A stretch of 64,000 nucleotides of DNA from the NCBI GenBank assembly GCA_000002435.2, contig CM018792.1, one strand, 5' to 3'. Positions 28,922-53,756 of this stretch are shown here, one piece after another. Position 1 is the stretch's first letter, and each line of letters opens with the position of its first letter. Source of the DNA: Giardia intestinalis. Lineage: Eukaryota. The notes beneath the pieces are model-generated. The model saw only the letters and a list, made by a program, of their open reading frames with translations, did no database searches and was not told where the DNA came from. Both the position numbers and the translations under genes were made by a program.

Positions 28922-29064
28922 TTTTATCTTAGTTTGTACTAGCCCTTCGTTGGTAGTGCAGCCCTGTTCAGGGACAAAACGTGGTAGACACCTCTTAGGT
29001 AACTACTTCGTTGTATTGACACTTTCGACGTATAGCAACTTATCACAGGGCGAAGTTAACTTAA

Positions 29065-29081
29065 GAGGGCGCAGATTTGGG
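29065..29081 (+). promoter_or_regulatory. Histone promoter 'him'-like motif (GAGGGCGCAGATTTGGG) about 40 bp upstream of the histone H3 ATG
   Basis: GGGCGCAGATTTGG closely matches the conserved Giardia core-histone upstream element (GRGCGCAGATT.GG) as I recall it. Located at -52 to -36 relative to the ATG at 29117. Confidence 0.5.
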
Positions 29082-29116
29082 ATCAATCTTTTTGGCCAAA
29101 AAGGGCGGGGAACAAA

Positions 29117-29557
29117 ATGGCACGCACCAAGCACACGGCACGCAAGACGACCAGCGCGACGAAGGCGCCGCGCAAGACGATCGCGCGCAAGGCCGCACGC
29201 AAGACGGCGTCCTCGACGAGCGGGATCAAGAAGACCGGCCGCAAGAAGCAGGGCATGGTCGCGGTCAAGGAGATCAAGAAGTACCAGAAGTCCACAGACC
29301 TGCTCATCCGGAAGCTGCCCTTCTCGAAGCTCGTCCGTGACATCGTCACCTCCGGGCTCTCCAAGTCCGACATCCGCTTCCAGGGCGCGGCGGTGGAGGC
29401 CCTCCAGGAGTCTGCGGAGAACTACATCATCTCGCTCTTCGTCGACACGCAGCTCTGCGCCGAGCACGCCAAGCGCGTCACGATCATGAAGCCCGACATG
29501 GAGCTTGCGACCCGGATCGGCAAGCGGATCGAGCCCGAGTACAGGAAGGGCAAGTAA
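29117..29557 (+). CDS. H3: Histone H3
   Basis: [20 protein letters not shown]...[10 protein letters not shown]...[20 protein letters not shown] is unmistakably H3. AGTAAAC poly(A) signal overlaps the TAA stop. Confidence 0.95.
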
Positions 29558-29566
29558 ACGTTTACT
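29553..29566. terminator. 14-bp palindrome AGTAAACGTTTACT providing overlapping Giardia-type poly(A) signals (AGTAAAC) for convergent H3 (+) and CPSF30 (-). Each overlaps its own stop codon.
   Basis: The H3 stop TAA is at 29555-29557, inside AGTAAAC. The CPSF30 stop is TAG, the reverse complement of 29565-29567, and is followed on the minus strand by AGTAAAC, the reverse complement of 29560-29566. The sequence is its own reverse complement. Confidence 0.7.
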
Positions 29567-30359
29567 AGGCGTCTTCGTCTTCGATTTCCTTGTTTGCCCG
29601 CGCACGGGCCCGATCGGCGCGTTCGCTGGCTTCGATTTCGCGCAAAATGTCATAGAGGCGGCGGAAGTTTTCGGGCGTGTGCTCAAAGACTTTGTTGATC
29701 ATAGCGTGGTCACGGACGAGCCGGGACCCGTCTTTGGCAGCAGGACATTGTAGCAACATCCCAGTGAAGTCTGTGTTATCCTCTATTGAGGTCTGTCCGT
29801 GATGAGCGTTGTAGCGATCTTTCTTGTCGTTGTCGGTGAGCTCATGAGCATCGCCGTGATACTTGCAGCAGTGGCTGCAGTGGCCAATATAGCCCGGCTT
29901 CTTCATGACCTGGCGCGTGTATATGGTAATGGGACCAGACAGCTGGGGGTGCTGCATTGTACAATTGGGGCCTTCGGGACAGAAGCCTGCGAGGTACCGA
30001 GGGCAGAGCGTGTACACTATGTGCCTGGAATCGCATGTTTTATTGAGGCAGACACCGCGTGCGAATGAATAGCAGACATCGGCACGCTTAGAGCTCTTGT
30101 GGTTGTAAATGCAGTAGTGGTTGGTGCAATTATCTCCAAACTTGCACAGATCGAGCTTGTCAATAGCGTACTCATGGATAAACTCGCAGTCATCTCCTTT
30201 CTTACACTGGTCTCGGATGTAGTGCTTACAGACGGTCTTATTAGTCTTCCTACTACTATCTGTCTCCATGTGTGCATATATCCCTATCTTATCGCGAATG
30301 AACGTGTTGAGCTGCTCAGAGTTCTGCGTTCGGAAGCAGGACTCCAAGGCATAGTTCAT
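29565..30359 (-). CDS. CPSF4: CCCH zinc-finger protein, CPSF 30-kDa subunit / YTH1 homolog (mRNA 3'-end processing)
   Basis: Five tandem CCCH fingers: CKHYIRDQCKKGDDCEFIHEY, CKFGDNCTNHYCIYNH, CYSFARGVCLNKTCDSRH, CPRYLAGFCPEGPNCTMQHP. These parallel YTH1/CPSF30 ([21 protein letters not shown]...CVNYLVGFCPEGPSCKFMHP). A CxxCxxxH knuckle follows. Confidence 0.85.
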   Translation of the reverse strand: MNYALESCFRTQNSEQLNTFIRDKIGIYAHMETDSSRKTNKTVCKHYIRDQCKKGDDCEFIHEYAIDKLDLCKFGDNCTNHYCIYNHKSSKRADVCYSFARGVCLNKTCDSRHIVYTLCPRYLAGFCPEGPNCTMQHPQLSGPITIYTRQVMKKPGYIGHCSHCCKYHGDAHELTDNDKKDRYNAHHGQTSIEDNTDFTGMLLQCPAAKDGSRLVRDHAMINKVFEHTPENFRRLYDILREIEASERADRARARANKEIEDEDA

Positions 30360-30385
30360 AGTAGATCTTCCAAAAAATTCTCTCT

Positions 30386-31309
30386 ATGGAGAGCATAAAC
30401 GACGTGATCATGCGGCACACGCCCCTTGTATCTGCTACAAAGCATCAGGCCACTCAGTTCCTTATAAGGAGGGCTGGCCTGGCCGGTTCATGTAACGCCA
30501 AGGAGGAGTGCTTCGAACTAACAACGGAGAAAGACTGCTTTCGTTCGGACACGTTCATGGTTACTTGTCCCGTTTTTCTTGCATGCTACCAGTCCTATTA
30601 TTCTCAGGAGGAGTTTGATAAATTGAGGTTCTGGACTCCTGGAATTGCATTTACTGAAACCAACGATCCAGCGCCGGTAACGGACTGTGTTGATGAGTCT
30701 GCCTTTGACGAGGACGGCCCGAGCGTTATGGCGCTTCATGATGATGAGTCTCCACACGTCAGTCTCGTCTCGGGACTTCACTTCTTTGTTACCAAGCCTA
30801 GCCCGAAGCTAGTAACGGCCCGCGTGAACACTTCAATCGTTGCCATGTGTCGTAGCAATCCGTATCCGGTTAACGCGATTCCTATAGTCCGAAACAACTG
30901 GATCTATAAGCAGAATGTCATCCTCTTATGCGCTCAGAATCTATCCTACACCAGCTTTGCAGCATCCTCGGTAGACCAGCTTCTTACCAATTTGGCCGAG
31001 AAGTCTGGAAACGCTAACTTGAAACGTTGTATAGAAGAGGAACTTCAGTCAGAGCTGCCGTGTCCAGGAAAGATAGGTAGGGGCGTCTCCAGACTGCCAG
31101 AGTCTCTAGTTACAACTGGTAGCGAAGGCCCACTAGTTTTCAGCGTAGCCTGCGATACAGGTCAGACTGACGATCAGCGAAGCTACATCGATCTGCAGCC
31201 TGTACAGGTCTTCCACGTCGAGCAGCCCAAGAGTGGGCAGGAGAAGGTAATTCCATTTACACCCTTTACTGCACGTGACAATGTGGTCAGTTTCCTAGAC
31301 GTCCTCTAG
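30386..31309 (+). CDS. Hypothetical protein (307 aa)
   Basis: ATG at 30386 preceded by caaaaaattctctct initiator, only 26 bp from the divergent CPSF30 start. No domain recognised. Confidence 0.45.
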   Translation: MESINDVIMRHTPLVSATKHQATQFLIRRAGLAGSCNAKEECFELTTEKDCFRSDTFMVTCPVFLACYQSYYSQEEFDKLRFWTPGIAFTETNDPAPVTDCVDESAFDEDGPSVMALHDDESPHVSLVSGLHFFVTKPSPKLVTARVNTSIVAMCRSNPYPVNAIPIVRNNWIYKQNVILLCAQNLSYTSFAASSVDQLLTNLAEKSGNANLKRCIEEELQSELPCPGKIGRGVSRLPESLVTTGSEGPLVFSVACDTGQTDDQRSYIDLQPVQVFHVEQPKSGQEKVIPFTPFTARDNVVSFLDVL

Positions 31310-34300
31310 GAAGGTACGTGATTGCTGTTGGACGAAGTGTGGCTTAGCAAGCAAGAGTAAGTATAACCACATCTATTGCCAAATGTTAAAGAAATCACGG
31401 GCCAGAAGAAAGGGTCAGTACTGTAATGCAAGAGCACGCTACTGTTCACCTCAGCTAAGCATGGGGCAATAATCTTCTACCTATGGACACACTTTCATAT
31501 CTCACAGAAAGTGCACAAGTAGGCAGATTGGGAGAGGCAGCGTGTAAATGTATCATGTTTCACCAGTACCCATTCGTCACACAAGACAGTAAACTGCCAA
31601 TCAACAGCAAGACAGCGAGACCCCACAGCATCTCTCCAACCAACAATAAGAGTGGCCAGCGCTAGCCGCGGGGGCGTCCGAACGAGCTCAGCCCTCGTAC
31701 CAGTTCCTCCCGGTCGCTTCATTCACGGCGCCACCAAGAAGACGCGTGCCCTGACTCGCGAACCAAGGCGCTGACCATGGAGCAGCGACATGCGGTAAGT
31801 AGAGTACAAAAAATCCACAACACCGGCAAGCGATGCACTCGGGCAAAGGTGCCCCCTGCCTCGGGAGATCATGCATCTAGACACCGATGCTGCTCTTTCG
31901 TTGCTGCGGCTCCAGGCTTCCAGATAGTCCGGCCCTTTCCAGTATCACACATCCTCTTCTATCTGACATGAAACCGGGGCTACGGTGCTCTGAGCTCTGA
32001 ACGTCGCCCTATGGGTGTGGCGGAATTTTACAGCCCTCACTGTCGAGCGGCCTTACCCATAGGCATCCCCACAGCTCAGGGCCAGCAGGCGTAGGTGGCG
32101 CCCTTGCAGTGAGCCCCAGAGAACAGCCAGCGCGGAGTTTGATACGATCCTTATCATACCTCGCCAGACCTGGTCGAGAGCGCCCCCATTTTCCATAGAA
32201 TGGCCCCCAACACAGTCCCAAGGCTGGGCGTAATGGGCAGCCTTTGGATTGCAGGGCGACACAGTGGATACTAGTGCACCCCGGCGAGACCTTGTGACCT
32301 GCTTCAGAGGTTGCAAGAAATGCCCGTCTCTGGCCTACGTTTGTGCTAACGCTACGGTCTCAGAACGAAGCGAGGGAAGAACGCCTTGCCAGGCCCCGTG
32401 GTAGCCCGTCTGTTTGGGAGACTGCAGATTACTGACTTGTGCGAGGCAACCGGAGGAGCCTGCTGGGCCAGACTACGAGGACTATGAGAGCCGCGGACAT
32501 AACAGCCACACGGCCCCTACCTTCTTTCGGCTTCTCGGATTCCAGTTGACGCATCTGGCTGTGCACGACTCTATTTCCCTTTGTCAGGTGCATGGCGCGA
32601 AGGTAGAGCAGCCCAGTCACAGCGTTCAACGCGTCTACTGCTGGATGGGCCCGAATAGTAGAAGAATGCCCATGGGTGTAATGACAGCGGCGATTCACGG
32701 GTAGTCCACGATTGTACGTTCCACAGCCACCGACCGGAGTAGCCTTCGACTGGGCGTGTCTATACTAAGCCGTGGGCTGCTCTTCGAGGCTCTAGATGCG
32801 TTTGATCCCTGCTCATGCATCCTGGCCTTATGCCTGCGGGTCTTTGGCTCGCAGCTATCTGGGCTTCATTTATCATGGACCGTTCGCTATGTATCCTTGT
32901 TCCTGGAAAGCCCTCTAATGGCTGACAGAACAGGACCACAGGCTCCTGTGTCGCCGCAGTACGTGTCCGTTTCCTTCACCAGGTGATCGTACTCTCGCAA
33001 ATGACTCTGCCACCGGCTCTGTCGTCTTGGAAGAGTCTATACTGCAGGACTTCCCGTGAACTGTTTCTATGCAGATTAGAAATCTTACGTGCTTACCAAC
33101 GTAGGGATCCAATAACATGGCGCCATGCTCACAGTCCCAGGGTCACCAGACAATGGAGCACGGGGCTGAGAAACTCAGATTGCAGCAGTCCAGCTCTTGA
33201 GAATCCCTGCATATATTAGGACAGAGTGACTGGGCTAGCACACAGTGACATATTGAACCAGCCAGAGAGGCAAACAATCTCCTCTCATGTAAGACCCCTG
33301 TATATCTAGGGCGCCCAGACCATCTGAACTCGTAGGCATGCATCCAGTTCAATATCGGTAATCTAAGCACTGATAGACCGGTTGTGAGGCAGAGCCAGTG
33401 CCGACCCCAAGAGCTCAACTGCTCTGAGGCAGCACATTGTAGGCTATAACATTCTACACACTTCTGCTGATCGACCTCGCGCTCCAGCTGGCGGCAGAGG
33501 AGTGCACAGAAGTAGCTGATGGCCGCCACAGCCACTGCACGGGCCTCCAGGGCAGGGGGTCTCTCTGCCACTGCAATCTGCAGCAGCGTGGGGGCCGCCC
33601 CGTGTGCTGCCCCCTCTGCCGTAGCGGGGCTTCAGGCATGCCATCGGGACTGTCCGACGGTCGCCGGTTGAGCCCTGTGTGCACGGCAGGATGAGAAGAC
33701 TGCCCCACAACGACATGCCCTCGCTGGAGGACACCTGCAGGGCAGGGGAAGCTGTGGCCCACTGGGGGAGTGAACGATCTCAGTGGATCCAGGCGCACTG
33801 CACTGCGGGCCCGTCGGGCCGGTCTCTGACGGGCGCCGCGATCACTCTGCTCGGTCTGGCAGATCACGAGGGGTCTGAGGCCGGTCTGTTGGGAGGAGGA
33901 CCGGGACCCTCGCTGATGGTCGAGCAGAGTCACCACAGGGGGGCACGAGCTCGAGTGAATGAGGGCCCTCTTAGCAGCGCGCATGTCAACCGAGCGAGGA
34001 GAACGACATGGCAGACACCAAAGGAGCCATGACCTCCTGAGCCCTCTGAGGTTTGTACTAGGCTCGCTGGGCTTATCAATCTCAGGCTCTGGTTCGCTCG
34101 AGTGAGCACTGCAAGGGTGGGAAGGGAACCTAAATGGAGATAAGCCTCCACAAGTGGCGGACAGAGTATCTGTGATCGACACTTGCCACTGATGCTGTCT
34201 GGCAACTTAGCTTTGCAGAGGCCCATTGAGTAAGCACTCCAGGCAGTAATAACGCAATCAGCTAGCCATAGCTCTAGACTGCTCCTGAAGACCTGCAGCA

Positions 34301-35049
34301 AGGAAAGGCGAAGTCCCCAGAGCTTACCGATGCAGTGCCAGAGCTTATGCTCTTCTTCGATGATCTGCTGAGGCTATCTCAAAGGCTCCAAGACTATGGA
34401 GAGGGAAGCTTGATGGTAGGAATTCATAATCAGTGCTGCTCAGGACCCAGTAAGCCCTCCTCTCCAGTCATGGCGAGCTGCCGGGCCCTGGGAACGTCAG
34501 ATGGCCTTGCCGATGTGCATGGACAGTGGGTAAGAGGATCCCCAACGTCTACAGTTCACAGGAGCTGTTTTACTACAGGCTGTCAGGCTTCTTCCATGAC
34601 ATCACAGGGTTTCTGAAGCAGAGGCCCGGCAGAAAGAAGGTGGTGATAAGATAGCTAGGTCTCCAGCAGTGCAACAGAGAAGACCCTTGCTCTATCAGCG
34701 ATGACTCGCTTCCGTTTCCTGACACAATCGAGCATTGACTGAAGTTACTCACGGGATCCTTGGGGTGTGCTCGTAGGCAGAGGTCCTAGCAGCACAACGC
34801 TGAAGGTGACTGGTAGGTGGAATGAAGAAGTCCGAAGCTCTAGTGCCCACCCTGCACTGGTGCCCAGCCGGCTACAACCCCACAATTGAAGTCATCTCTC
34901 ATTGGGCACTTACCACACAAGGCAAGAAGGGCAGAGGGAATCCAGGGTGTACAATCTGTGTTTGGTGCGCTATCTGGATGATCTGTAAACAATACCGTGA
35001 ATCGCAAGCTTACCAGTACACGCGTTTCCTTTGTGATTATGAAATAAAA

Positions 35050-35787
35050 ATGTCGTCTGCAGATGATTCGGATCACTGCTCTCAGGAGCACGACTGCGCC
35101 CCGCCCCTCATGCCCGAGAAGGACACGAGCGAAGAGGGCGCAGGCAAGAGCAGCCCCGCCGAGTCTCCACAAACAGATGATGAAGGCAGTGTGGACGAGG
35201 ACGGCGTCACCACGCTTATGAAGGCAGCCAGCAGAAACGACGTGAAAGCGGTGAAGCGCTACATCCCTTATCAGGCAAGGATGGTGGCGAAGCTTGTCAA
35301 GGCGGGGACAATAGAGATACGCGAAGGGACGGCCCTGATGGTCGCCGCAGTGCTTGGACACGTCGAGACAGTGAAGCTGCTGATGAGGCACGAGCGTTGC
35401 ATGAGGGATAGTAATGAATGGACGGCCCTCATGTGGGCGGCGGGCAACGGTTGTACCGAGGTCGTGAAACTACTCCTGGATGTTGAGGGAGGCATGGAGA
35501 AGGACAGGGGCCTTACTGCCCTCGTGTTTGCAGCAAATTTTGGTCACCTGGAGTGTGTCAAGTTACTGCTGGAGAAGGAGAAGGACATAAGCGGCAGATC
35601 TGCCATTCGTATGGCTGGTATGCACGGCTGTTCCAAGGTGGTATCTTTTCTTGAGAGTGAGGGTATTATGGATCCCTATCTGCAGATGCCGCCCAAGAAA
35701 TTCGTGAGTGAACCTGCCTACTTGTTGATTGCATTCGATAATGTACTAGGGCCTCTCCAGCTGTGCAGGGGGACGGCCAGCCAATAG
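35050..35787 (+). CDS. Small ankyrin-repeat protein. The likely start is the internal ATG at 35050. The ORF-track start at 34822 adds 76 non-protein-like residues.
   Basis: ttatgaaataaaaATG initiator at 35050. Five or six ankyrin repeats (TALMVAAVLGHVETVKLLM, TALMWAAGNGCTEVVKLLL, TALVFAANFGHLECVKLLL). Confidence 0.65.
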   Translation: MSSADDSDHCSQEHDCAPPLMPEKDTSEEGAGKSSPAESPQTDDEGSVDEDGVTTLMKAASRNDVKAVKRYIPYQARMVAKLVKAGTIEIREGTALMVAAVLGHVETVKLLMRHERCMRDSNEWTALMWAAGNGCTEVVKLLLDVEGGMEKDRGLTALVFAANFGHLECVKLLLEKEKDISGRSAIRMAGMHGCSKVVSFLESEGIMDPYLQMPPKKFVSEPAYLLIAFDNVLGPLQLCRGTASQ

Positions 35788-36028
35788 GGCGAAGTGCTGG
35801 CCGTCAGTGGGTCACACAGCTGCCCGTTTCCGCAGAGGTCAAGGGGAACAGGCCTTCTCACCCCCGGCCGGCACTGGAACGCCGGTGGGTGAAACGGTCG
35901 CGCAGGTGGCCTTCTTGCCCCTGATGCAGTAGCCCTCCGCAAGCATTGGACCACTACAGATCTGTAGACACAAACCCCTGTGGAAACGGATCGTTTCCAA
36001 AACTGTAGATTACCAAAATAAAACCAGG

Positions 36029-38044
36029 ATGGACACTGCCTCGTCTGAGCCTGCAACAGTGGCCTCTAGTGTCCCGCAGTTTACCCTCAATGACCTCTAT
36101 GAACGGTTAGGTGATATACTAAGCAAAGATATCACGGGTATAGTCTACTCTCTCAAGGACTATCCGAGTCTCGTTGTAAAGGTCGCCCCACTAGGTTGCC
36201 TGGAAAAGGATAACACAGACGCTGTCCGACTCGAGCTGGCTGCCCTCCCCGAGCTCTCCCACCCAGGGGTTCTCAGGTATCATCAAGTGATCGAGCACAT
36301 GAATTTCGTCTACTTTATCACAGACCGTTACAACAAGACTCTCGGACGTCTTCTCATTGAGCATATGCAAATGAAGAGTCCTGTGCCCACCAGAGTGATC
36401 CTCTCAGCTATAAGACAGATCGCTACCGCCCTTGCCTACCTTCACAGTGTCAAAAGGGCAGATGCTGAGGGGCTTGTTCACCGCGATCTTAGGTCTACCA
36501 ATATCTCCATCAGTGCAGACGGTGAGCACTTCATCATCGCCGGCCTCGAACTCTGCAGGAACATCTTGTGGAGTGGAAGCACTCTTATAGGAATAGGGGC
36601 ACACACGGCCCCCGAGGTGCTCCTCCACAACGAGCCCAGCCCCGCCTCCGACGTGTGGAGCCTCGGGGTCATCATTTATGAACTAGTAACTCTAAGGATG
36701 CTGGACTTCCTGGAGGACAGGGAGCCAGAGGATGTCTTCGTTGATGGGTGGAGGCCAGACCTGAGCGGTGTCACTGATGGCTTCATGCAGAATGTTCTGG
36801 AGAGGATATTCGTGCTGGATCCTGGGAGGAGGCCGACGGCCAGGGAGCTGCATGAGATGCTCGACACAGCAGATATTTCGGATAACGAGCCGGAACCTTG
36901 GCAAGTGGCGCTGGAAAGTAAGCATGGTTCCTCGAAGATCACTGCGAGTAATACTCATGCCAAGATCGCGCTTTTGGAGGAGGAGGTCAAAACTAAGTTG
37001 AACGAGATTGCTACTCTTAAGGCAACCCTTGAGAACAGGCCAAGTGAAGTCGACGCCCTGGGACAGGAGCCCAGAATTAAGTTAACTAGGATCGACATGC
37101 TTGAAGATCAATGTAGAGAGTACCTAGCCATGATAAAAGTACTAGACAGTAGAATTACACAGATTAGCATTGCGCTAGGTCTATCCAATTCTCAATTCAG
37201 CCTCTTCTTGCTACCCAGATTTATACGCGCCGCACGCACGAATGAAACAGAGACCGTCCGAATGCTGGTCAATGAGGGAGTCTACATCGGTCAGCGTGAC
37301 GAGAAAAAGATGACGGCTCTTATGCATGCGGCCCAGCAGGGGCACACTGGTCCCATTGAATTGCTTGTTAAAGAAGAGAGGGGCCTCCAGGACAAGAACG
37401 GCTGGACTGCGCTCATGCACGCCGCACACTGCAACCACCCTGAAGCAGTCGAGATTCTCGCCCCTTACGAACGTGGGAGAAGAAACAAGAACAGTCGAAC
37501 TGCTCTAATGGTCGCTGCAGAGAATGGCAGTGCAGAAGCTGCTTCCATTTTGGGCCCGTACGAGGATAACCTAATCGACAGTGAAGGCAACACGGCTCTG
37601 ATGATTGCTGAGAAAGCAGGACACAAACTTGTTGCAGAGATTCTCAGTCCGGATGAAGTGGATGGGTGTACAGCGCTTATGCAAGCAGCGAAATGTGGTC
37701 GCATAGATGCGGTAAAACTCCTAATAAAAAACAAAAGCCGTGCACAAAACATACTTGGAACAACTGCTCTCATGGAAGCAGCGTCCTGGGGCCATTCAGA
37801 AATTGTGAAACTGCTAATTGATCATGAAGGAGGCATGCAGGACATCTTTGGAGCGACTGCTCTCATAACTGCAATACGTAATAATCAACTGGAATGTGCT
37901 AAACTTTTAGTAGAGAGGGAAAGGGATATAAAAGATAAGTATGATAAGACTGCCCTTGATATAGCTAAGGCTATGGTCTATCCTGAGATGGTGTCTCTCC
38001 TTAGCAGTAGTGTATCTAGCACCGGCGGCCACAATGACTCTTAG
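36029..38044 (+). CDS. NEK-family kinase-like protein with coiled coil and C-terminal ankyrin repeats, predicted catalytically inactive (pseudokinase)
   Basis: Kinase-like fold with HRDLRSTNI, APE (GAHTAPEV) and DVWSLGVIIYEL. No GxGxxG loop. DFG is replaced by AGL (IIAGLELC). A coiled coil at ~300-380 is followed by about 8 ankyrin repeats (TALMHAAQQGH..., TALMHAAHCNH..., TALMVAAENGS...). AGTAAAC signal at 38062-38068, 18 nt past the TAG. Confidence 0.8.
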   Translation: MDTASSEPATVASSVPQFTLNDLYERLGDILSKDITGIVYSLKDYPSLVVKVAPLGCLEKDNTDAVRLELAALPELSHPGVLRYHQVIEHMNFVYFITDRYNKTLGRLLIEHMQMKSPVPTRVILSAIRQIATALAYLHSVKRADAEGLVHRDLRSTNISISADGEHFIIAGLELCRNILWSGSTLIGIGAHTAPEVLLHNEPSPASDVWSLGVIIYELVTLRMLDFLEDREPEDVFVDGWRPDLSGVTDGFMQNVLERIFVLDPGRRPTARELHEMLDTADISDNEPEPWQVALESKHGSSKITASNTHAKIALLEEEVKTKLNEIATLKATLENRPSEVDALGQEPRIKLTRIDMLEDQCREYLAMIKVLDSRITQISIALGLSNSQFSLFLLPRFIRAARTNETETVRMLVNEGVYIGQRDEKKMTALMHAAQQGHTGPIELLVKEERGLQDKNGWTALMHAAHCNHPEAVEILAPYERGRRNKNSRTALMVAAENGSAEAASILGPYEDNLIDSEGNTALMIAEKAGHKLVAEILSPDEVDGCTALMQAAKCGRIDAVKLLIKNKSRAQNILGTTALMEAASWGHSEIVKLLIDHEGGMQDIFGATALITAIRNNQLECAKLLVERERDIKDKYDKTALDIAKAMVYPEMVSLLSSSVSSTGGHNDS

Positions 38045-38221
38045 GCTCTCTGCGACCCACAAGTAAACTGCCGCTCTCTTAGAGGGGCAAGGCCTGGAGG
38101 AGCAGCGTTGCAGGCTGGTGCCTCGGGTTTCTAGCCTGCGCCCGGCACCATAGAGCAGGTGCTCCGAGCTGCCCGCCCACGGTATTTCTGAGGAGCCGCG
38201 ATCGCAATTGGGAGGCAAAGA

Positions 38222-38974
38222 ATGGCATTTATTGAGGCGGCCAAGGAGAACAGGCTGGACTACGTCAGGGCCCACAAGGCCGCGGACGCAGGCCAGAGGG
38301 ACGCAGACGGGAAGACGGCGCTCATGTGGGCCGCCGAGGCCGGGCACACCGCCGTCGCCCTGGAGCTGGTCGACGCAGAGGCGGGCCTGGTCTCGAACGA
38401 CGGGTCCTTTGCGCTGATTGCGGCGGCAAAGAGGGGGAACCTCGAGCTGATCCAGGCCCTTTTCGAGAAGGAGGGGAGGCTGCGGGACGCCGGCAAGCTC
38501 TCCGCCCTCAACCACGCCTCCAGGGCGAAGCAGTTCGAGGCGGCCAAGGTCCTCCGGCTGAAGACCATCGAGACGATGGACGCGGCGATGCTGGAGCAGC
38601 TCCGGCAGAGGGTCGCGGCCACCTACACCGAGATGGCCAAGAAGTCGCAGCAGGCCGAGGTCAAGAGCCACAACATGGCCATCTTCCGCTCGTTCTTCGA
38701 GGCGTTCTACTCCCTCTCCTGCTCGGGGATCGACCAGGGGGCGGAGATCTCGGAGGAGCAGCTGAACAAGTCCCTCGAGAAGTGCCTGGGCGAGATCCGC
38801 AAGCTCCTCAACTCGAAGAAGTACACGAAGTGCGTGAAGTGCCGCGCCAACGCCCCCAACCTGGTCTGCATGCCGTGCAAGCACTACGTCCTCTGCAAGG
38901 ACTGCGGGAAGGACGTGGCCAGCGAGGTCTGTCCTGGTCTGCGAGAACCCCCTTGGCACACTAGTAGGCACTGA
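38222..38974 (+). CDS. Ankyrin-repeat protein with C-terminal C3HC4 RING-type finger. In the sequence as given, the finger lacks its final Cys pair.
   Basis: N-terminal ankyrin repeats ([37 protein letters not shown]). The C-terminus [47 protein letters not shown] supplies C1-C7 of a zf-C3HC4_3 pattern but not C8. Very GC-rich codon usage. Confidence 0.7.
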
Positions 38975-39050
38975 TAGTACCGCTAAGGCATATGTAGGAG
39001 TATATGGCTGCTCCCGGTGTACAGCACCAACAGCTCTAACAACAGCTGGC

Positions 39051-39341
39051 ATGACTGCTGCTGTGTGTACCTCCTGTGACAGTGGTAAGAAGCCCAACAA
39101 GGATGGCAGTGGGTGTGTAGTATGCTCTGACACCAACTGCAAGAGCTGTGTGGTGGACGGTGTGTGTGGGGAGTGCAACAGTGGCTTCAGTCTAGACAAT
39201 GGCAAGTGTGTGTCTATGAGCACGAACAAGAGCGGGCTCTCCACGGGGGCCATCGCTGGCATCTCCGTCGCGGCGGTTGTCGTCGTGGGGGGCCTCGTGG
39301 GCTTCCTCTGCTGGTGGTTCGTGTGTAGAGGGAAGGCGTAG
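39051..39341 (+). pseudogene. Orphan 3' fragment of a variant-specific surface protein (VSP) gene: CxxC-rich stub, conserved membrane-proximal segment, TM and invariant CRGKA cytoplasmic tail. No signal peptide or N-terminal region.
   Basis: ...[91 protein letters not shown]. Only 96 codons from the ATG, whereas VSPs are typically several hundred aa. Confidence 0.75.
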
Positions 39342-39561
39342 GTACTTAGGTAGCAAACGCTGTGAGTGGTGTAGGGACTTCATAGGGTGCTGGCAGTGGG
39401 ATGCGCACTAGAGTTGAGGGTGGAATCGTGCGAACCAGCTATTTAATCTAGCATCGTTATCACCATTGTTAGAAAACAGGGCACTCGGTGCTATCTTAGA
39501 TAAAAGCCAGACATAGGCAGTTCTAGGGGCGATCGAAGTAGTGAGAGCTTTAAAATTTAAA

Positions 39562-39878: not shown

Positions 39879-40361
39879 TCAACGTTGTAGATAGGTTCTC
39901 ATTAGCACAAGGAAGTCATTATTGGTTGATTCCCTTACTAGCCATCTAGTGTTAAATTCAGCAGCAAGAGCGGTCTCCTCCTCGGCCTTCAGGCCCAGGC
40001 GCGCGGCGGCCCGGTTGGCGAAGTAGACGGCGCGCTGGTCTGGGGGCTCGTTGTTCGCGGCCGAGACCTCGATCGCCTGGGTGAAGAGCCGGATCGCCTC
40101 CTGGAAGTCCTCCGCCTTGAAGGCGGCGTTGCCCTGCGCCTTGAGCTCGCTGGAGCTTGTGCTGGAGACCGCCGGCGCCTTCGCCCCGCTCAGGATCTGC
40201 TCCAGGTCGCCGTTGCCGTGCCTGACGTCCTTGAGTCCGAAGCAGTCCCGGAGGCAATCGATGGCGACGTCCAGGTTGTCGGTGTCCTCAACGGCTTGCG
40301 CAGCCCTGAGGTAGAGGAGGTACTCGACGACGAGCCTCTTGGCGGCCAGCCTTGTCGTCAT
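39879..40361 (-). pseudogene. Truncated duplicate of the SGT (small glutamine-rich TPR protein) gene: the first 137 codons are identical to the intact copy at 53757, then 23 unrelated codons and a stop at the repeat boundary
   Basis: MTTRLAAKRLVVEYLLYLRAAQAVEDTDNLDVAIDCLRDCFGL...EETALAA is identical to the right-arm gene. It diverges exactly at the inverted-repeat edge (39961) into EFNTRWLVRESTNNDFLVLMRTYLQR*. Confidence 0.65.
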
Positions 40362-43300
40362 CTATTTTTAAGCAGTCGTTCACTCCCTCTCAAAGTACTC
40401 TCGCTGGTCCATGATCACAGAAACCACCGCGTTCATGTCGCGCCCGAGCCTGACATATGCCTCCCTCACCCGGTTGTAGTTCAGGTCGCCACCACAGATC
40501 CCGATGATCGTGGCGATGTTGTCCTCGTCGTCCGCGGTCAGCGGAGGGGGCTGCTCTGCAGGCTGCGGCGGCGCCCTTTCCCTTGGAATAAGGATCCCTC
40601 TCCCGGCCATCCCTGCCTCGATCATGTTCAGGTAGAGGTGGAGCACCTCAAGGAGCAAGTCGCGATCCTCGTTGAATCTCAGCACCAGATTGGGGCTCCA
40701 GTCGGATATCTGGGTTGTAAACATCTCCAAGAAGTTCGGTGTCTGGAGTATCTGCTCTAGCTCCTCGGTGCTGTACATGTGTGGTCTGTGGCTGTGTCTG
40801 GCCGCGCCCATGTGCCGGAGGGTGTCCTCGAGATCCTCTTCTGTCGGATCTTCGGCGATGATGGCAGCTGCCAGATCCATGTTGTTATTAGCCAGCTCGA
40901 GCGATATCTGCGCCAGCCGTGGCCTACAGGAAAAGGTCTCTACTAGCTGTGCGACGAGGTCCGAGTTGTTGCTAACTGGGTCTAGTTCTAAGGCATCTGA
41001 ATTGGATCCGGACGAGGAGTCTTGCACCTCAGCATGAGGATCTCGCGAAGCAGCCGATTCAATTTGCCGGGCCTGCGCGACCCCTGCGGCAGAACTGCTG
41101 GGAGGCGCTTCAAGGATCCTTCCGCGAGGTTTAGCCTGAGTGAATACTACGGTATCCTGAGTGATATTTGGAACCTTCGACAGTAGAATACCGTCATCAT
41201 TCAAGATAGATGCGTTGAGAATGAGACGGATGGTGGGCGCCTCTGCGGAGATGGCCTCAGCAACCTTCTTCCGCAGATCGCCGACGGTGCTATCTGGAAA
41301 AAACTCGAATGTCCTTGGCTCGAATTCCTTCACTGTGGACCTAACCGCGATCCTGATGCAATCAGACATTTTTTGTTTGCATAGACTAATAATTCACTTT
41401 ATCTCAGAGGGTGCGGTCACGGTTATCTCACCGGAGTAACAATCCGTTGTGCTCTGTGAGTGCCGATTGCTCTGCGGAACCATTTCCAGCGCCCTGACAA
41501 ATGAACGGTTAGAGCGTAGGGCCTTGTTAGCATACTGTGTATCCTCGCCTGCCACAAACTCTAACCCTAAGAAGTCGGCCATTTCGACATTGTTTGCTGA
41601 TGTTTCATGCCTAGACGCGAGGTGCGGCGCCTTCGACTGCGCTCGGCTCTTAGGCTTGAAAGCATTTGCTGCATGTAAATCCCCAAGCTGCCTTTCCTCT
41701 CTTCCGCAGGCGGCAGTGTTTTTCCGAGCAGGTAAAGAAACATCGCCAACTGATTGATGCCTTGCTGACAACTCAAGTTTGTTCTGAGACATATTGCCTT
41801 GAAGCTTACTCCCGTTATTAGGTAGGATGTTTCCCCCTTGAGACCTATTAGAAGTTAGTGAATTCTTGACTGTCGGGACGATTTCTTCTTGAGTTGAGCA
41901 GGAAACTACATCCCTCGCCGAAGCAGAAAGGTGACCTTGCTTGAGTGAGGCACCAAGCTCGCCTGCAATAGAGCTGCCACTCAGACGTGTACACGCAAGA
42001 TTAGCTGAGCTATCGTTTTGACAGATGATGATAGAATGGCTCTCCCCTTCTGTGTGAGGAAACTCAACAATGGTGTCCCGGCCGGAAAAGGAAACCCGGT
42101 CCTTTGTGGAAGTCGCTGGTTGCCCTTTAGCTCGTTTCTCGACCGCTTCAACACCTGCACTGGCCATGTTCTGCTTGCTAGTGTACCTGCTCTCCGAAAA
42201 TAACTCACCAGAGGTAACATTAGCATCATCCTCACTCATCGATGAAGTGGAATGCTGAGTCTCGACCTGCGATAGCCTGACATGTCGGCTTTCAAGGCAG
42301 TCAGCCGTAACAACTGTGTGGCCAAGCTTACTCAGGTGCTTCCCGTCGAAGTCGACGCTTTTGTTTTGCCGTAAGATGGACTGAAAGTTGGAATTGCGTA
42401 GTATGGAAGAGTTAGACAGCGCATGTCGCACACTCTGCTGAGATGAAGGATTGTCCGCGTCACATGTCCTTGGCGTCTTTGCACTAACTCTGAATTCATT
42501 GGTAGTCGTGGCACTATTTTGTGATAGAGATGTTCTGCTCAGCGAGTAGGGATCTTTGCTTTCCTGCCCCAGCGGAAGCGTGACCAGGCTTATGTTGCTA
42601 TCGCTGGAGGGTGTCTGTGGGAGGAGAGGGGCCGGACGCAGACGCTGAAAATCTGTTGAATGAGGTGCTCTGTCGCTATAGACTGGTGGTGAAGCTACTG
42701 AATCCCCTGTCAGAGGGAGAGTTGGCGGTATATAAATGGGGGTTATAGAAGTGTTTTGCCTGTCGTTCCTCATGTTGCTAAGCGGAACGTGCTTCGGTAT
42801 CTGAGTATCCTTGTAAATCGTAGAATCTTCTGTCAGGTGGCTTTCATTCTTTACATCCAAGTCAATCACTGTGGTCGAGGAAGCATGCGCCGAATGGACA
42901 TCGCCGGGGTCTTCCGACGAGGAATCCGAATAGTAATAGTAAGACTCTTCGTCGCTCTCCATTGAGTTGTAGTCCAGTTGACTGTGGTCACTGTCCTTCT
43001 TCTTGCTAACTGGTTCCTGTTTTTGCGCAGCAGGAAGTGTTGCCCTGGACTGAGTAGACGACGTAGTAATGGGCATTATGTCGGGCATTTTTCCGGTGAT
43101 GATAGGGAAAACCCGGGTAGCTTTTGGCCGAGTAGACTCTGACTTGGCAGAGTTTGTTACAGGGAAGGGCAAGCTTGCTATCTGCGTGATTAGGGGGAGC
43201 TGAGTATATGGCACCTTTTTCAACGGCAATGACACTGATGTTGCATTTTGCAGGGTCGTCAGTCGGTTTGGAGACACAATGACGGGCGCGGGCTGTACAT

Positions 43301-44089
43301 CTGGGCATAACGGAATTGATCGTTTTGTCGAGATCGACTCTGATGTATTTAGTGGAAACTTTACAGACTGTTCCTGCAAACAAGAAGGGTCTTGAGCATT
43401 AGTTGTTCGACGCGCAGAGCTCACGTGCATCCTATACCGACGATCCTTACTTGATGTAATTCGGGGCGCCCCCTGTAATTGGTACGGAGGAACAAGTTTT
43501 GGTACGGAAGTTCGGAACGGGATAGCCGAGCTTATCTCACTAGCTTCGTCTTGCTTAGTTCGTCCAAGAGTGAAGCAAATATTCCCAAAGTTTTCCGGAA
43601 ATTTCGTTGAAGGAATGACAATAGAGAGTGGAGGCGGGCGGAAGCTGGAAGAGTCACTAACAGTGCAATCGCTAGTAACCCTACTAAGAGAGAAGTTTGC
43701 TGGGCGAGCCGGCTCATTCGGCATGTGGAGGGATATACTTGAGCCCATAGAGACGCCAGCGGCTTCAGGAATGGGCAAGCCACCAAGCTGATTCTGAGAA
43801 GCACCGAGCCCCACCTCCCTCTCGGATCCGTTAGACTTAGACTGTCTTTCTATTTCCCGAGAAGACTTCTCGTTACACACAGCACTACAGGAGGCTACTT
43901 TTACCTCTGCAAGGTCTGGCCTAAACGAGTCGGCACTTTTCACCTCTTCCACGTTGTTTAGGGCTGTTGCGTGACCTGCGCATGTCTCTTGGCGGCCTTC
44001 AAAGGACGACGTTTTGCTAGTCACCTCCTTACACTCTTCAAGAGACGGCGGCGCGTCCGAGTCCAGCGCGGAAATCTGTCCGCTGCGCC
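39961..44089. repeat. Left arm of a 4129-bp inverted duplication, the reverse complement of 50029-54157. Apparently 100% identical.
   Basis: Every ORF translation in this span, on either strand, recurs identically in mirrored order in the right arm. Direct reverse-complement comparison at both ends and at 41361-41440 versus 52681-52760 shows identity. The boundaries were located by the first mismatches. Confidence 0.9.
40380..41369 (-). CDS. RAD23-like protein (N-terminal ubiquitin-like domain, internal and C-terminal UBA-like domains), copy A
   Basis: The Ubl fold at residues 1-80 is IRIAVRSTVKEFEPRTFEFFPDSTVGDLRKKVAEAI...TVVFTQAKP. The UBA-like segments are RLAQISLELANNNMDLAAAIIAED and NIATIIGICGGDLNYNRVREAYVRLGRDMNAVVSVIMD. 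329 aa. AT-rich initiator. Identical to the copy at 52749. Confidence 0.55.
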   Translation of the reverse strand: MSDCIRIAVRSTVKEFEPRTFEFFPDSTVGDLRKKVAEAISAEAPTIRLILNASILNDDGILLSKVPNITQDTVVFTQAKPRGRILEAPPSSSAAGVAQARQIESAASRDPHAEVQDSSSGSNSDALELDPVSNNSDLVAQLVETFSCRPRLAQISLELANNNMDLAAAIIAEDPTEEDLEDTLRHMGAARHSHRPHMYSTEELEQILQTPNFLEMFTTQISDWSPNLVLRFNEDRDLLLEVLHLYLNMIEAGMAGRGILIPRERAPPQPAEQPPPLTADDEDNIATIIGICGGDLNYNRVREAYVRLGRDMNAVVSVIMDQREYFERE

Positions 44090-50028: not shown

Positions 50029-52724
50029 GGCGCAGCGGACAGATTTCCGCGCTGGACTCGGACGCGCCGCCGTCTCTTGAAGAGTGTAAGGAGGTGACTA
50101 GCAAAACGTCGTCCTTTGAAGGCCGCCAAGAGACATGCGCAGGTCACGCAACAGCCCTAAACAACGTGGAAGAGGTGAAAAGTGCCGACTCGTTTAGGCC
50201 AGACCTTGCAGAGGTAAAAGTAGCCTCCTGTAGTGCTGTGTGTAACGAGAAGTCTTCTCGGGAAATAGAAAGACAGTCTAAGTCTAACGGATCCGAGAGG
50301 GAGGTGGGGCTCGGTGCTTCTCAGAATCAGCTTGGTGGCTTGCCCATTCCTGAAGCCGCTGGCGTCTCTATGGGCTCAAGTATATCCCTCCACATGCCGA
50401 ATGAGCCGGCTCGCCCAGCAAACTTCTCTCTTAGTAGGGTTACTAGCGATTGCACTGTTAGTGACTCTTCCAGCTTCCGCCCGCCTCCACTCTCTATTGT
50501 CATTCCTTCAACGAAATTTCCGGAAAACTTTGGGAATATTTGCTTCACTCTTGGACGAACTAAGCAAGACGAAGCTAGTGAGATAAGCTCGGCTATCCCG
50601 TTCCGAACTTCCGTACCAAAACTTGTTCCTCCGTACCAATTACAGGGGGCGCCCCGAATTACATCAAGTAAGGATCGTCGGTATAGGATGCACGTGAGCT
50701 CTGCGCGTCGAACAACTAATGCTCAAGACCCTTCTTGTTTGCAGGAACAGTCTGTAAAGTTTCCACTAAATACATCAGAGTCGATCTCGACAAAACGATC
50801 AATTCCGTTATGCCCAGATGTACAGCCCGCGCCCGTCATTGTGTCTCCAAACCGACTGACGACCCTGCAAAATGCAACATCAGTGTCATTGCCGTTGAAA
50901 AAGGTGCCATATACTCAGCTCCCCCTAATCACGCAGATAGCAAGCTTGCCCTTCCCTGTAACAAACTCTGCCAAGTCAGAGTCTACTCGGCCAAAAGCTA
51001 CCCGGGTTTTCCCTATCATCACCGGAAAAATGCCCGACATAATGCCCATTACTACGTCGTCTACTCAGTCCAGGGCAACACTTCCTGCTGCGCAAAAACA
51101 GGAACCAGTTAGCAAGAAGAAGGACAGTGACCACAGTCAACTGGACTACAACTCAATGGAGAGCGACGAAGAGTCTTACTATTACTATTCGGATTCCTCG
51201 TCGGAAGACCCCGGCGATGTCCATTCGGCGCATGCTTCCTCGACCACAGTGATTGACTTGGATGTAAAGAATGAAAGCCACCTGACAGAAGATTCTACGA
51301 TTTACAAGGATACTCAGATACCGAAGCACGTTCCGCTTAGCAACATGAGGAACGACAGGCAAAACACTTCTATAACCCCCATTTATATACCGCCAACTCT
51401 CCCTCTGACAGGGGATTCAGTAGCTTCACCACCAGTCTATAGCGACAGAGCACCTCATTCAACAGATTTTCAGCGTCTGCGTCCGGCCCCTCTCCTCCCA
51501 CAGACACCCTCCAGCGATAGCAACATAAGCCTGGTCACGCTTCCGCTGGGGCAGGAAAGCAAAGATCCCTACTCGCTGAGCAGAACATCTCTATCACAAA
51601 ATAGTGCCACGACTACCAATGAATTCAGAGTTAGTGCAAAGACGCCAAGGACATGTGACGCGGACAATCCTTCATCTCAGCAGAGTGTGCGACATGCGCT
51701 GTCTAACTCTTCCATACTACGCAATTCCAACTTTCAGTCCATCTTACGGCAAAACAAAAGCGTCGACTTCGACGGGAAGCACCTGAGTAAGCTTGGCCAC
51801 ACAGTTGTTACGGCTGACTGCCTTGAAAGCCGACATGTCAGGCTATCGCAGGTCGAGACTCAGCATTCCACTTCATCGATGAGTGAGGATGATGCTAATG
51901 TTACCTCTGGTGAGTTATTTTCGGAGAGCAGGTACACTAGCAAGCAGAACATGGCCAGTGCAGGTGTTGAAGCGGTCGAGAAACGAGCTAAAGGGCAACC
52001 AGCGACTTCCACAAAGGACCGGGTTTCCTTTTCCGGCCGGGACACCATTGTTGAGTTTCCTCACACAGAAGGGGAGAGCCATTCTATCATCATCTGTCAA
52101 AACGATAGCTCAGCTAATCTTGCGTGTACACGTCTGAGTGGCAGCTCTATTGCAGGCGAGCTTGGTGCCTCACTCAAGCAAGGTCACCTTTCTGCTTCGG
52201 CGAGGGATGTAGTTTCCTGCTCAACTCAAGAAGAAATCGTCCCGACAGTCAAGAATTCACTAACTTCTAATAGGTCTCAAGGGGGAAACATCCTACCTAA
52301 TAACGGGAGTAAGCTTCAAGGCAATATGTCTCAGAACAAACTTGAGTTGTCAGCAAGGCATCAATCAGTTGGCGATGTTTCTTTACCTGCTCGGAAAAAC
52401 ACTGCCGCCTGCGGAAGAGAGGAAAGGCAGCTTGGGGATTTACATGCAGCAAATGCTTTCAAGCCTAAGAGCCGAGCGCAGTCGAAGGCGCCGCACCTCG
52501 CGTCTAGGCATGAAACATCAGCAAACAATGTCGAAATGGCCGACTTCTTAGGGTTAGAGTTTGTGGCAGGCGAGGATACACAGTATGCTAACAAGGCCCT
52601 ACGCTCTAACCGTTCATTTGTCAGGGCGCTGGAAATGGTTCCGCAGAGCAATCGGCACTCACAGAGCACAACGGATTGTTACTCCGGTGAGATAACCGTG
52701 ACCGCACCCTCTGAGATAAAGTGA
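50029..52724 (+). pseudogene. Duplicated 3' fragment (last ~887 codons) of the MAST/Greatwall-like kinase gene without its own ATG. The ORF-track start at 50094 is GTG. It lies in frame with, and 11 codons downstream of, the LRR gene's TAG.
   Basis: The translation is identical to the C-terminal 876 aa of the 2670-aa protein. The upstream in-frame sequence diverges at 50029. The first in-frame ATG is ~95 codons in. No AT-rich initiator. Confidence 0.6.
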
Positions 52725-52748
52725 ATTATTAGTCTATGCAAACAAAAA

Positions 52749-53738: not shown

Positions 53739-53756
53739 ACGACTGCTTAAAAATAG

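Follow-up and report, generated by a model that had tools for sequence, protein, structure and literature searches.

Does an interval of 3.7 kb without any annotated gene, located in a genome as compact as that of Giardia intestinalis, hide a gene, an RNA or a mobile element, or is it intergenic DNA? The window, i.e., the whole stretch of 64,000 nucleotides of contig CM018792.1 that was analyzed, originates from Giardia intestinalis WB C6. Within this window, the upstream neighbor GL50803_003021 (307 aa) ends at position 31309 and the downstream neighbor, the gene for "Ankyrin repeat protein 1" (245 aa), starts at position 35050. The two flanking genes and the NEK kinase gene carry the consecutive protein accessions KAE8303462, 63 and 64, showing that no protein-coding gene is annotated in between. 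The resulting gap, 31310-35049, comprises 3,740 bp compared to 904 bp for the second-largest gap and a median of about 100 bp in the window, so that the first-pass annotation was right in its flanks and in describing a gene-free stretch amid spacers of tens to a few hundred bp. The published mean intergenic distance in Giardia WB is 477 bp (PMC7000408).

The interval had also been called a GC-rich island. This holds for its overall GC content, which amounts to 0.555 compared to 0.505 in both the window and the left flank, a value equaled or exceeded by 32 of 603 equally sized windows. However, the enrichment is patchy (Table 1), with a 500-bp maximum of 0.67 at 33500-33999 in block B1, and the right flank has a GC content of 0.544. 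Moreover, the block at 38.2-39.0 kb is equally GC-rich yet strongly coding (35-38 bits), showing that a high GC content alone is no marker of non-coding DNA in this region.

Table 1. Features of the interval between GL50803_003021 and the gene for Ankyrin repeat protein 1 (positions in the window).
Feature	Position	Strand	GC	Remarks
3' flank of GL50803_003021	31310..31565	+	0.44	AT-richer; final stretch shared with assemblage E (P15)
Block A1, unique non-coding, assemblage A only	31566..32924	.	0.57	
Repeat R, 502-bp dispersed repeat	32925..33426	+	0.52	second copy on the 4.02-Mb chromosome
Block B1, GC-rich non-coding core	33427..34200	.	0.63	fast divergence
Block B2, unique non-coding	34201..34700	.	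0.53	strong AI versus AII divergence
Solo terminal repeat, decayed, left by a dead non-LTR retroelement (GilD-like)	34701..34826	-		probable strand, from collinearity with L023
Upstream region of the ankyrin gene, common to the paralogous ankyrin/NEK cassette	34925..35049	+		matches in L023

A junction of synteny and rearrangement

The main point beyond the first-pass annotation is that the interval is a synteny and rearrangement junction, at which collinearity with assemblage E is lost, the contigs of assemblage B end and multi-copy genes lie on one side. In the assemblage E isolate P15, homology covers 31310..31565 (L015, 10925-11179; about 70% identity in blastn and nhmmer, E = 4e-24) and breaks at about 31560-31565. 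Beyond this break P15 carries a dead copy of a non-LTR element (L015, 13209-12221, E = 5e-39), followed by a VSP gene and a kinase gene. In three assemblage B assemblies (GS, GS_B and BAH15c1) the contigs all terminate 263-636 bp past the orthologue of GL50803_003021, and for DHA2 the collinearity with WB extends only to about 39.1-39.4 kb. On the downstream side, the ankyrin/NEK cassette has a paralogue of 80% identity (window 34970-36862, L023 5628-3734), with the similarity also found in the region upstream of the ankyrin gene (34925-35037, L023 5660-5560; nhmmer, E = 3e-11), and ankyrin repeat protein 2 is present in at least six copies in WB at >90% identity. It was shown that synteny breaks in Giardia fall at the NEK, ankyrin-repeat and cysteine-rich gene families and that the surroundings of VSP genes are gene-poor with a higher allelic variation (PMC7000408).

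The blocks A1, B1 and B2, together about 3.1 kb of the interval, are orphan sequence. Comparing the interval by tblastx and blastn with the rest of the window, the P15 neighbors, the downstream region of DHA2 and the contig ends of assemblage B, only the 255-bp 3' flank was matched. Among the fetched loci, block A1 matches only the orthologous contigs of assemblage A, and block B2 shows no similarity elsewhere in nhmmer searches. At least 540 bp of block B1 are found in a third lineage at another location and in inverted orientation (L028 1-479 corresponds to window 34059-33518, about 90% identity), adjoining genes for a HAD hydrolase and an ankyrin protein, neither of which occurs in the window.

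The divergence between WB and DHA2 (AI versus AII) increases stepwise along the interval. At the 4-fold sites of the left neighboring genes 9 of 699 sites differ (1.3%), compared to 48 of 1866 sites (2.6%) in 31561-33426 (odds ratio 2.0, p = 0.051) and 116 of 1554 sites in 33427-35049 (p = 6e-11 versus the 4-fold sites). The left half of the interval diverges at or above the synonymous rate and the right half at about six times that rate, in a neutrality test that compares the single genome pair WB and DHA2 and has low power for elements shorter than about 100 nt. Within the right half, block B1 shows a divergence of 5.8% plus 67 gap columns, and about 65 bp of this block are deleted in DHA2. 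The divergence of 34201-35049 amounts to 8.9%. Gene conversion from the L023 paralogue as the cause of the high AI-AII divergence at 34.9-36.9 kb is unsupported: among the sites variable between WB and DHA2, the paralogue agrees with WB in 84 cases and with DHA2 in 46.

In our preferred reading, the interval is likely a non-functional non-coding spacer, i.e., a composite scar at the border of a conserved core block and a variable multi-copy block. The conserved core block ends with GL50803_003021, and the variable block consists of the genes for ankyrin repeat protein 1, the NEK kinase and ankyrin repeat protein 2 together with a VSP remnant. Recurrent insertion, deletion and ectopic exchange probably assembled the interval: a GilD-like dead non-LTR retroelement would formerly have been present upstream of the ankyrin gene before deletion left only some 125 bp of its terminus, the 0.5-kb repeat R, which also occurs at another locus on the 4.02-Mb chromosome, would continue to exchange sequence with that copy, and A1, B1 and B2 would drift at or above the neutral rate. 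The lack of coding or RNA signals, the breaks in synteny, the two copies of R, the terminal-repeat remnant and the steps in divergence are observed; the absence of a function and the order of these events are what we infer. The interval looks like an ordinary gene-poor variable-region junction of an already described kind. The result is thus mostly negative, in that the largest gene-free gap of the window appears to hide no gene, no known RNA and no intact mobile element, and annotators can keep the interval as intergenic. It offers a base-level example of how the compact Giardia genome may tolerate "junk" along the edges of variable ankyrin/NEK/VSP blocks; in such places, dead retroelements would erode to stubs and short dispersed repeats would permit ectopic exchange.

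RNA, retroelement and coding signals

Giardia produces sterile and antisense transcripts, and this is in line with the idea that the interval encodes one or several non-coding RNAs, long or small, that lie outside Rfam. A gene-free interval of 3.7 kb is moreover unusual in a genome of which 81% is coding (PMC7000408). However, the non-coding RNA genes that had been proposed as candidates found no support in the Rfam scan suggested along with them, which returned no match at E <= 1 in 30500-36000 and none at the gathering score in the whole window, and ARAGORN detected no tRNA or tmRNA. The RNA-fold z-scores of the interval are unremarkable (mean -0.05) and not more negative than in the coding control (minimum -2.55 versus -4.17), with values of z < -2 in 3% of its windows compared to 12% in the control. 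The sequence shows no constraint, its divergence equaling or exceeding that of synonymous sites, and furthermore assemblage E lacks the interval, and isolates differ in the arrangement of its blocks. An RNA gene in the interval is therefore improbable, and what the locus may still give rise to is an unstructured, fast-evolving long non-coding transcript.

A retroelement contributed to the interval on a small scale. An nhmmer profile of a unit of about 3.1 kb was built from four copies of a dead reverse transcriptase/endonuclease element. The stub at 34701-34826 matches this profile, over 34701-34825, at 3076-3200 on the plus strand (E = 3e-8) and also at 4-117 on the minus strand (E = 1.5e-7), with about 60% identity to the element ends and the terminal motif GGTGGAxTxAA in common. 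It terminates in ...GGTGGAATGAA, with roughly 225 bp left before the ankyrin ATG, and is retained in DHA2 (L011 14252-14375). At the equivalent position upstream of the ankyrin paralogue, L023 carries a full element, and the collinearity with this paralogous cassette suggests that the stub is placed on the minus strand. The stub is thus the decayed, solitary remainder of a terminal repeat from a dead non-LTR retroelement of a GilD-like family, the family name being taken from published descriptions. Copies of GilD are located in gene-poor regions beside VSP genes and are eroded through microhomology-mediated deletions (PMC2861651). The suggestion of a GilD-type remnant thus holds for about 125 bp of the interval and fails for the remainder, in which no match to the element body was obtained by six-frame Pfam, tblastx against the four copies or nhmmer. 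Scans for direct, inverted and tandem repeats across 30-37 kb gave only short matches at chance level.

Alternatively, the whole interval might represent one ancient, heavily decayed GilD-type element on the minus strand that has become unrecognizable except for its terminal repeat. The non-conserved part, 31566-34826, measures 3.26 kb and thereby comes close to the unit length of the element, the stub is positioned at its right edge, a P15 copy of the same family lies on the minus strand immediately right of the orthologue of GL50803_003021, and the GC content of the element (0.60) resembles that of A1 and B1. Against this, nhmmer --max, run with the same profile that detects the P15 copy (5e-39) and the stub (22 bits), yields no hit at E <= 10 across the remaining 3.1 kb, and a body preserved at the 60% identity of the stub would score far above the threshold. 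There is neither a reverse transcriptase or endonuclease remnant (Pfam, tblastx) nor a second terminal repeat near 31.6 kb, and R and B1 are found elsewhere without an attached element body, making an origin of the whole interval from a single element unlikely.

A recently inactivated protein-coding gene, i.e., a frameshifted pseudogene, or a gene with unrecognized introns was considered as well, since several ORFs of 100-250 aa are present and the 2020 annotation of the WB genome lists 306 pseudogenes (PMC7000408). The ORFs of the interval are, as had been noted before, short and overlapping on both strands, and a single ORF starting with ATG, at 33454-33984(-), reaches 150 aa or more. Codon bias and period-3 signals are absent in all frames: the best window of 100 codons in any frame reaches a coding score of 2.1 bits compared to a mean of 15.4 bits in true coding windows, and the period-3 power has a median of 0.6 and a maximum of 1.8 compared to a coding median of 4.4. 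A six-frame Pfam scan of the interval returned no match at E <= 1. For the longest stop-free stretch, an ORF of 242 aa at 33454-34182(-), no homologue was found among 5.8 billion proteins and a single match, to another junk ORF, among 1.84 billion representative proteins; furthermore, this ORF is disrupted in DHA2. The Giardia intron 3' motif occurs four times in the interval, with 4.1 occurrences expected by chance. A hidden or recently lost protein-coding gene is hence very unlikely. The earlier judgment that no credible ORF is present, and that the long ORFs arise as artefacts because GC-rich DNA is poor in stops, agrees with these data, as they lack a coding signal and homologues and are broken in DHA2.

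Repeat R and its second copy

The repeat R has a sharp right edge at 33426/33427 and a left edge at about 32925. Its copies in L019 (51-573) and L021 (9028-9549) are 96.8% and 94.5% identical to 32925-33426, respectively. The second copy is located about 450 bp upstream of an EamA transporter gene on the 4.02-Mb chromosome, 118 bp past the end of a dead retroelement copy. R as the 3' tail of this adjacent retroelement was ruled out, because the element consensus stops 118 bp before R and other copies of the element occur without R. The proposal of degraded duplicated sequence is thus borne out for R, a two-copy dispersed repeat of 502 bp, and not for the rest of the interval, which is single-copy in everything fetched. 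Short-read assemblies break or mis-join here because of R, and WB-like Logan contigs stop at 32953, in agreement with the branching of a k=31 graph where R begins. That the gap itself arose through misassembly of the WB reference at this two-copy repeat, in which several short-read contigs break or switch, is extremely unlikely, as the independently assembled DHA2 contig is collinear over the whole interval (window 29001-39115), L026 extends from R across Part B as far as the genes for ankyrin and NEK, and the WB reference, assembled from PacBio data, was validated by optical mapping (PMC7000408).

The two R copies of DHA2 have DHA2-specific variants in common, which indicates gene conversion. 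Moreover, the contigs of one metagenome-derived sample show both reciprocal joins at R, i.e., GL50803_003021-R-EamA and dead element-R-Part B-ankyrin-NEK, with the switch points lying within a 102-bp stretch that is identical between the parental R copies. Tentatively, the 2.76-Mb and the 4.02-Mb chromosomes might actively exchange sequence at R in assemblage A, and one isolate possibly carries both crossover products if WB and DHA2 are taken as references. Contigs L002-L004 were considered as a polymorphic translocation in WB-like isolates; this was downgraded, as the R copies of WB share an identical core of 268 bp and k=31 contigs can consequently be chimeric. If the exchange is real, it would constitute a polymorphic reciprocal translocation via a 0.5-kb repeat and a potential marker of recombination in a supposedly asexual parasite, and R would provide a convenient PCR marker of a two-chromosome structural polymorphism among assemblage A isolates.

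Comparison with known systems

The interval resembles the gene-poor regions described by Xu et al. (2020; PMC7000408). It is located at the edge of an ankyrin-NEK-ankyrin-VSP-remnant block, synteny with the assemblages E and B stops, the gene density is low and the divergence between isolates is raised. Unlike in these regions, no intact VSP gene adjoins the interval in WB, where only a VSP-like fragment of about 130 bp is found at 39.2-39.35 kb. The specific locus is described neither in PMC7000408 nor in PMC2861651.

The element family of the stub is similar to GilD in those features of the description by Arkhipova and Morrison (2001) that are relayed in PMC2861651: it encodes a reverse transcriptase and a C-terminal endonuclease-like region, it is known only as broken ORFs, and its copies are interstitial rather than telomeric and adjoin VSP genes in gene-poor DNA. 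Unlike a GilD element, the interval derives from this family only in about 125 bp (3%). The fetched element copies have terminal inverted repeats of about 200 bp, a feature that may lie outside the published description of GilD.

Finally, R can be compared to recombination-mediating low-copy repeats, i.e., segmental duplications that support non-allelic homologous recombination. R is short for such a repeat, and exchange is inferred from assemblies rather than from reads. Similar to these repeats, R, with its 0.5 kb, is present in two copies on two chromosomes, the copies carry signs of gene conversion and the contigs of one sample contain two reciprocal joins. A possible two-chromosome exchange inside R may be new.

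The gene-free gap and its coding potential

The interval between GL50803_003021 ("3021") and the Ankyrin repeat protein 1 gene of strain WB, clone C6 (sub-assemblage AI), lies on a chromosome of 2,761,001 bp, probably chromosome 4. The protein accessions of 3021, Ankyrin repeat protein 1 and the next NEK kinase run on as KAE8303462, 63 and 64, and therefore no annotated protein-coding gene is present inside the island. The gene-free gap described in the first-pass annotation was thus borne out: it spans 3,740 bp, compared to 904 bp for the runner-up gap in the window, a window median of ~100 bp and a published genome-wide mean of 477 bp (PMC7000408). Its designation as GC-rich holds in part. 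The GC content is 0.555 (whole window: 0.505), placing the island in the top 5%, i.e., 32 of 603 same-size windows are at least as GC-rich; however, GC is uneven by block (0.44 to 0.63; highest 500-bp value 0.67), and equally high values are reached by the right flank (0.544) and by part of the coding DNA.

The claim that the island contains no credible ORF was confirmed by codon usage, periodicity, Pfam and homologue searches, all of which lack a coding signal. A codon-usage log-odds model, trained on 21 window genes and scored per 100-codon window, gave a mean of 15.4 bits (5th percentile 1.5) for true coding windows and 2.1 for the top island window in six frames. The GC-rich gene at 38222-38974 scored 35-38 bits, showing that high GC does not mask the coding signal. 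Period-3 power in the island is at noise level (median 0.6, maximum 1.8; coding DNA median 4.4), and the six-frame island translations matched zero Pfam families at E <= 1. For the longest ORF (242 aa, 33454-34182, minus strand), a search of 5.8 billion proteins gave no homologue, and in DHA2 (sub-assemblage AII) this ORF is shorter and broken. When 1.84 billion representatives were scanned in full with HMMER, a single 35-residue match resulted, to another junk ORF on homologous DNA.

Non-coding RNA genes, proposed earlier as a candidate, found no support in the sequence-based searches. The suggested Rfam search gave no match at E <= 1 in the island and none at gathering score in the entire window, no tRNA genes were found in the island, and its 150-nt fold z-scores (average -0.05, minimum -2.55) are milder than the coding control. 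The Giardia intron 3' motif occurs in the island at chance frequency.

Coordinates of the island, its neighbours and related elements (window positions unless a fetched contig locus, L, is named)
Feature	Position	Size	Remark
GL50803_003021	30386-31309	307 aa	left neighbour of island
Block A1	31566-32924		
Dispersed repeat R	32925-33426	502 bp	
Block B1	33427-34200		
Block B2	34201-34700		
Element stub (profile match)	34701-34825		
Ankyrin repeat protein 1, GL50803_114440	from 35050	245 aa	right neighbour of island
Inverted duplication	39961-44089 / 50029-54157	4,129 bp	perfect (100%); arms 5,939 bp apart
Ubiquitin-like gene KAE8303468	40380-41369 (-)	329 aa	in inverted duplication
Ubiquitin-like gene KAE8303472	52749-53738 (+)	329 aa	in inverted duplication
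Dead RT/endonuclease element	L021 5784-8910	~3.1 kb	
Dead RT/endonuclease element	L023 6050-9160	~3.1 kb	
Dead RT/endonuclease element	L024 379-3519	~3.1 kb	

Synteny and divergence between assemblages

Orthologous loci were fetched via the flanking proteins. Collinearity of DHA2 with the window extends from 29001 to ~39115, and DHA2 shares the gene-free gap. In P15 (assemblage E) homology to the window ends at 31560-31565, followed further right by other genes (a zinc-finger ORF of 767 aa and genes for a VSP and a kinase), and in three of three assemblage B assemblies the contigs end 263-636 bp past the 3021 orthologue. This places the exact end of between-assemblage synteny at the island start. 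The 767-aa ORF (L015 13077-15380) has a weak C2H2 zinc-finger as its sole Pfam match on record and adjoins, on the identical strand, a reverse-transcriptase-homologous stretch of a dead element; it may not be a host gene but the N-terminal end of a longer retroelement ORF.

At least 540 bp of B1 occur in inverted orientation in a third lineage (L028), where they adjoin genes for an HAD hydrolase and for an ankyrin protein of 819 aa, and this displacement shows that the island blocks move independently. Apart from L028 and the orthologous assemblage A contigs, no fetched locus matches A1 or Part B (B1 and B2).

The identity between WB and DHA2 drops stepwise along the profile. At 4-fold sites of the left genes 9 of 699 positions differ (1.3%), at 31561-33426 48 of 1866 (2.6%; odds ratio 2.0, p = 0.051), at 33427-35049 116 of 1554 (7.5%; p = 6e-11) and at 4-fold sites of the ankyrin gene 15 of 102 (14.7%), with divergence back to ~2% within the NEK gene. 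Nowhere in the island does conservation between the two exceed that of synonymous sites. Window 33600-36030, which takes in the Ankyrin repeat protein 1 gene (codon positions 1+2: 6.9%), differs by 6-12%, the surrounding genome by ~1%; gene conversion from the only fetched paralogue does not explain this divergence.

The dead retroelement and repeat R

A remnant of GilD, the dead non-LTR retrotransposon family of Giardia, had been suggested as one candidate origin of the island. This applies to ~3% of the interval, the stub, while the rest has no element match, and the GilD name is given by description only. A profile of four element copies matches the window solely at the stub, to the element terminus (plus strand E = 3e-8, minus strand 1.5e-7). 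The stub shows ~60% identity to this terminus, ends in the common terminal motif and is also present in DHA2. The paralogous cassette L023, 80% identical to window 34970-36862, carries a full element at the equivalent place upstream of the ankyrin gene, beside VSP genes, and in P15 the "gap" right of the 3021 orthologue is a decayed copy of the same family (E = 5e-39). Relatives occur in Giardia genomes as dozens of short "reverse transcriptase/endonuclease, putative" fragments. The unit derived from the four copies (~3.1 kb, GC 0.60) is bounded by terminal inverted repeats of ~200 bp. Such repeats are unusual for a non-LTR element and may represent the target site, in duplicated or palindromic form, and not part of the element.

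A second copy of R lies ~450 bp upstream of an EamA transporter gene, which is absent from the window and whose WB copy (KAE8306014) is located on a 4,018,654-bp chromosome. This copy was seen in contigs with the WB-type and the DHA2-type transporter, and its identity to the window copy is 96.8% (WB-type contigs) and 94.5% (DHA2). In DHA2 it sits 118 bp past the end of a degenerate non-LTR element with an RVT_1 match and a C-terminal CCHC/endonuclease-like ORF, every frame being broken; R as part of the element was rejected, as all other element copies lack it. The right boundary of R is sharp (33426/33427). Several short-read contigs end at 32953, as expected for k=31 graph branching at its left edge, or switch at 33426 into the transporter gene. 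Variants specific for DHA2 and common to both of its R copies (TT at 33123-4; 33199-33216) indicate, from sequence comparison, gene conversion between chromosomes at R.

Furthermore, with WB and DHA2 as references, the metagenome ERZ27317378 (ENA) contains both reciprocal joins across R. One contig (L022) has the order 3021 side, R, EamA, switching between 33144 and 33199; the other (L026) has the element terminus plus 118 bp, R, Part B, ankyrin and NEK, switching between 33048 and 33159 within a 102-bp stretch identical in both DHA2 copies; over its first 400 nt, L026 matches the 4.02-Mb chromosome copy of DHA2 with 100% identity. The joins could be due to mixed strains or to carry-over from smaller k-mers. 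The two R versions in this metagenome never share identical runs of >52 bases, so that a k=141 assembly should not mix them up. The joins suggest a real reciprocal exchange inside R and could represent a translocation between the 2.76-Mb and the 4.02-Mb chromosomes.

The island as a junction to a variable region

Further right, a 451-aa ORF (37907-39262, minus strand) overlaps the real GC-rich gene Ankyrin repeat protein 2 (38222-38974) on the plus strand, the only strand with a coding signal there; its family comprises at least six WB copies >90% identical, over three chromosomes. Window 39219-39360 resembles both a VSP gene fragment and the DNA flanking the element in the L023 cassette (78-81% identity), and the equivalent place in DHA2 is taken by a VSP fragment of 158 aa; by this similarity, it is probably a VSP remnant at the end of a variable cassette. 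DHA2 synteny stops at ~39.1-39.4 kb, just left of the inverted duplication, which copies the ubiquitin-like gene and the C-terminal part of a 2670-aa ORF, the latter giving a 784-aa ORF at 50370-52724.

As a summary, the best-supported reading of the island is a composite junction, non-coding and free of constraint, where a conserved core meets a variable ankyrin/NEK/VSP block. It would combine a retroelement stub and a low-copy repeat with orphan sequence. The observation is real and its explanation is ordinary for variable regions of Giardia. Regions of this kind were described in general terms by Xu et al. (2020, PMC7000408), who place the breaks in synteny at NEK, ankyrin-repeat and cysteine-rich gene families and note that DNA around VSP genes has few genes and varies more; the island resembles these regions.
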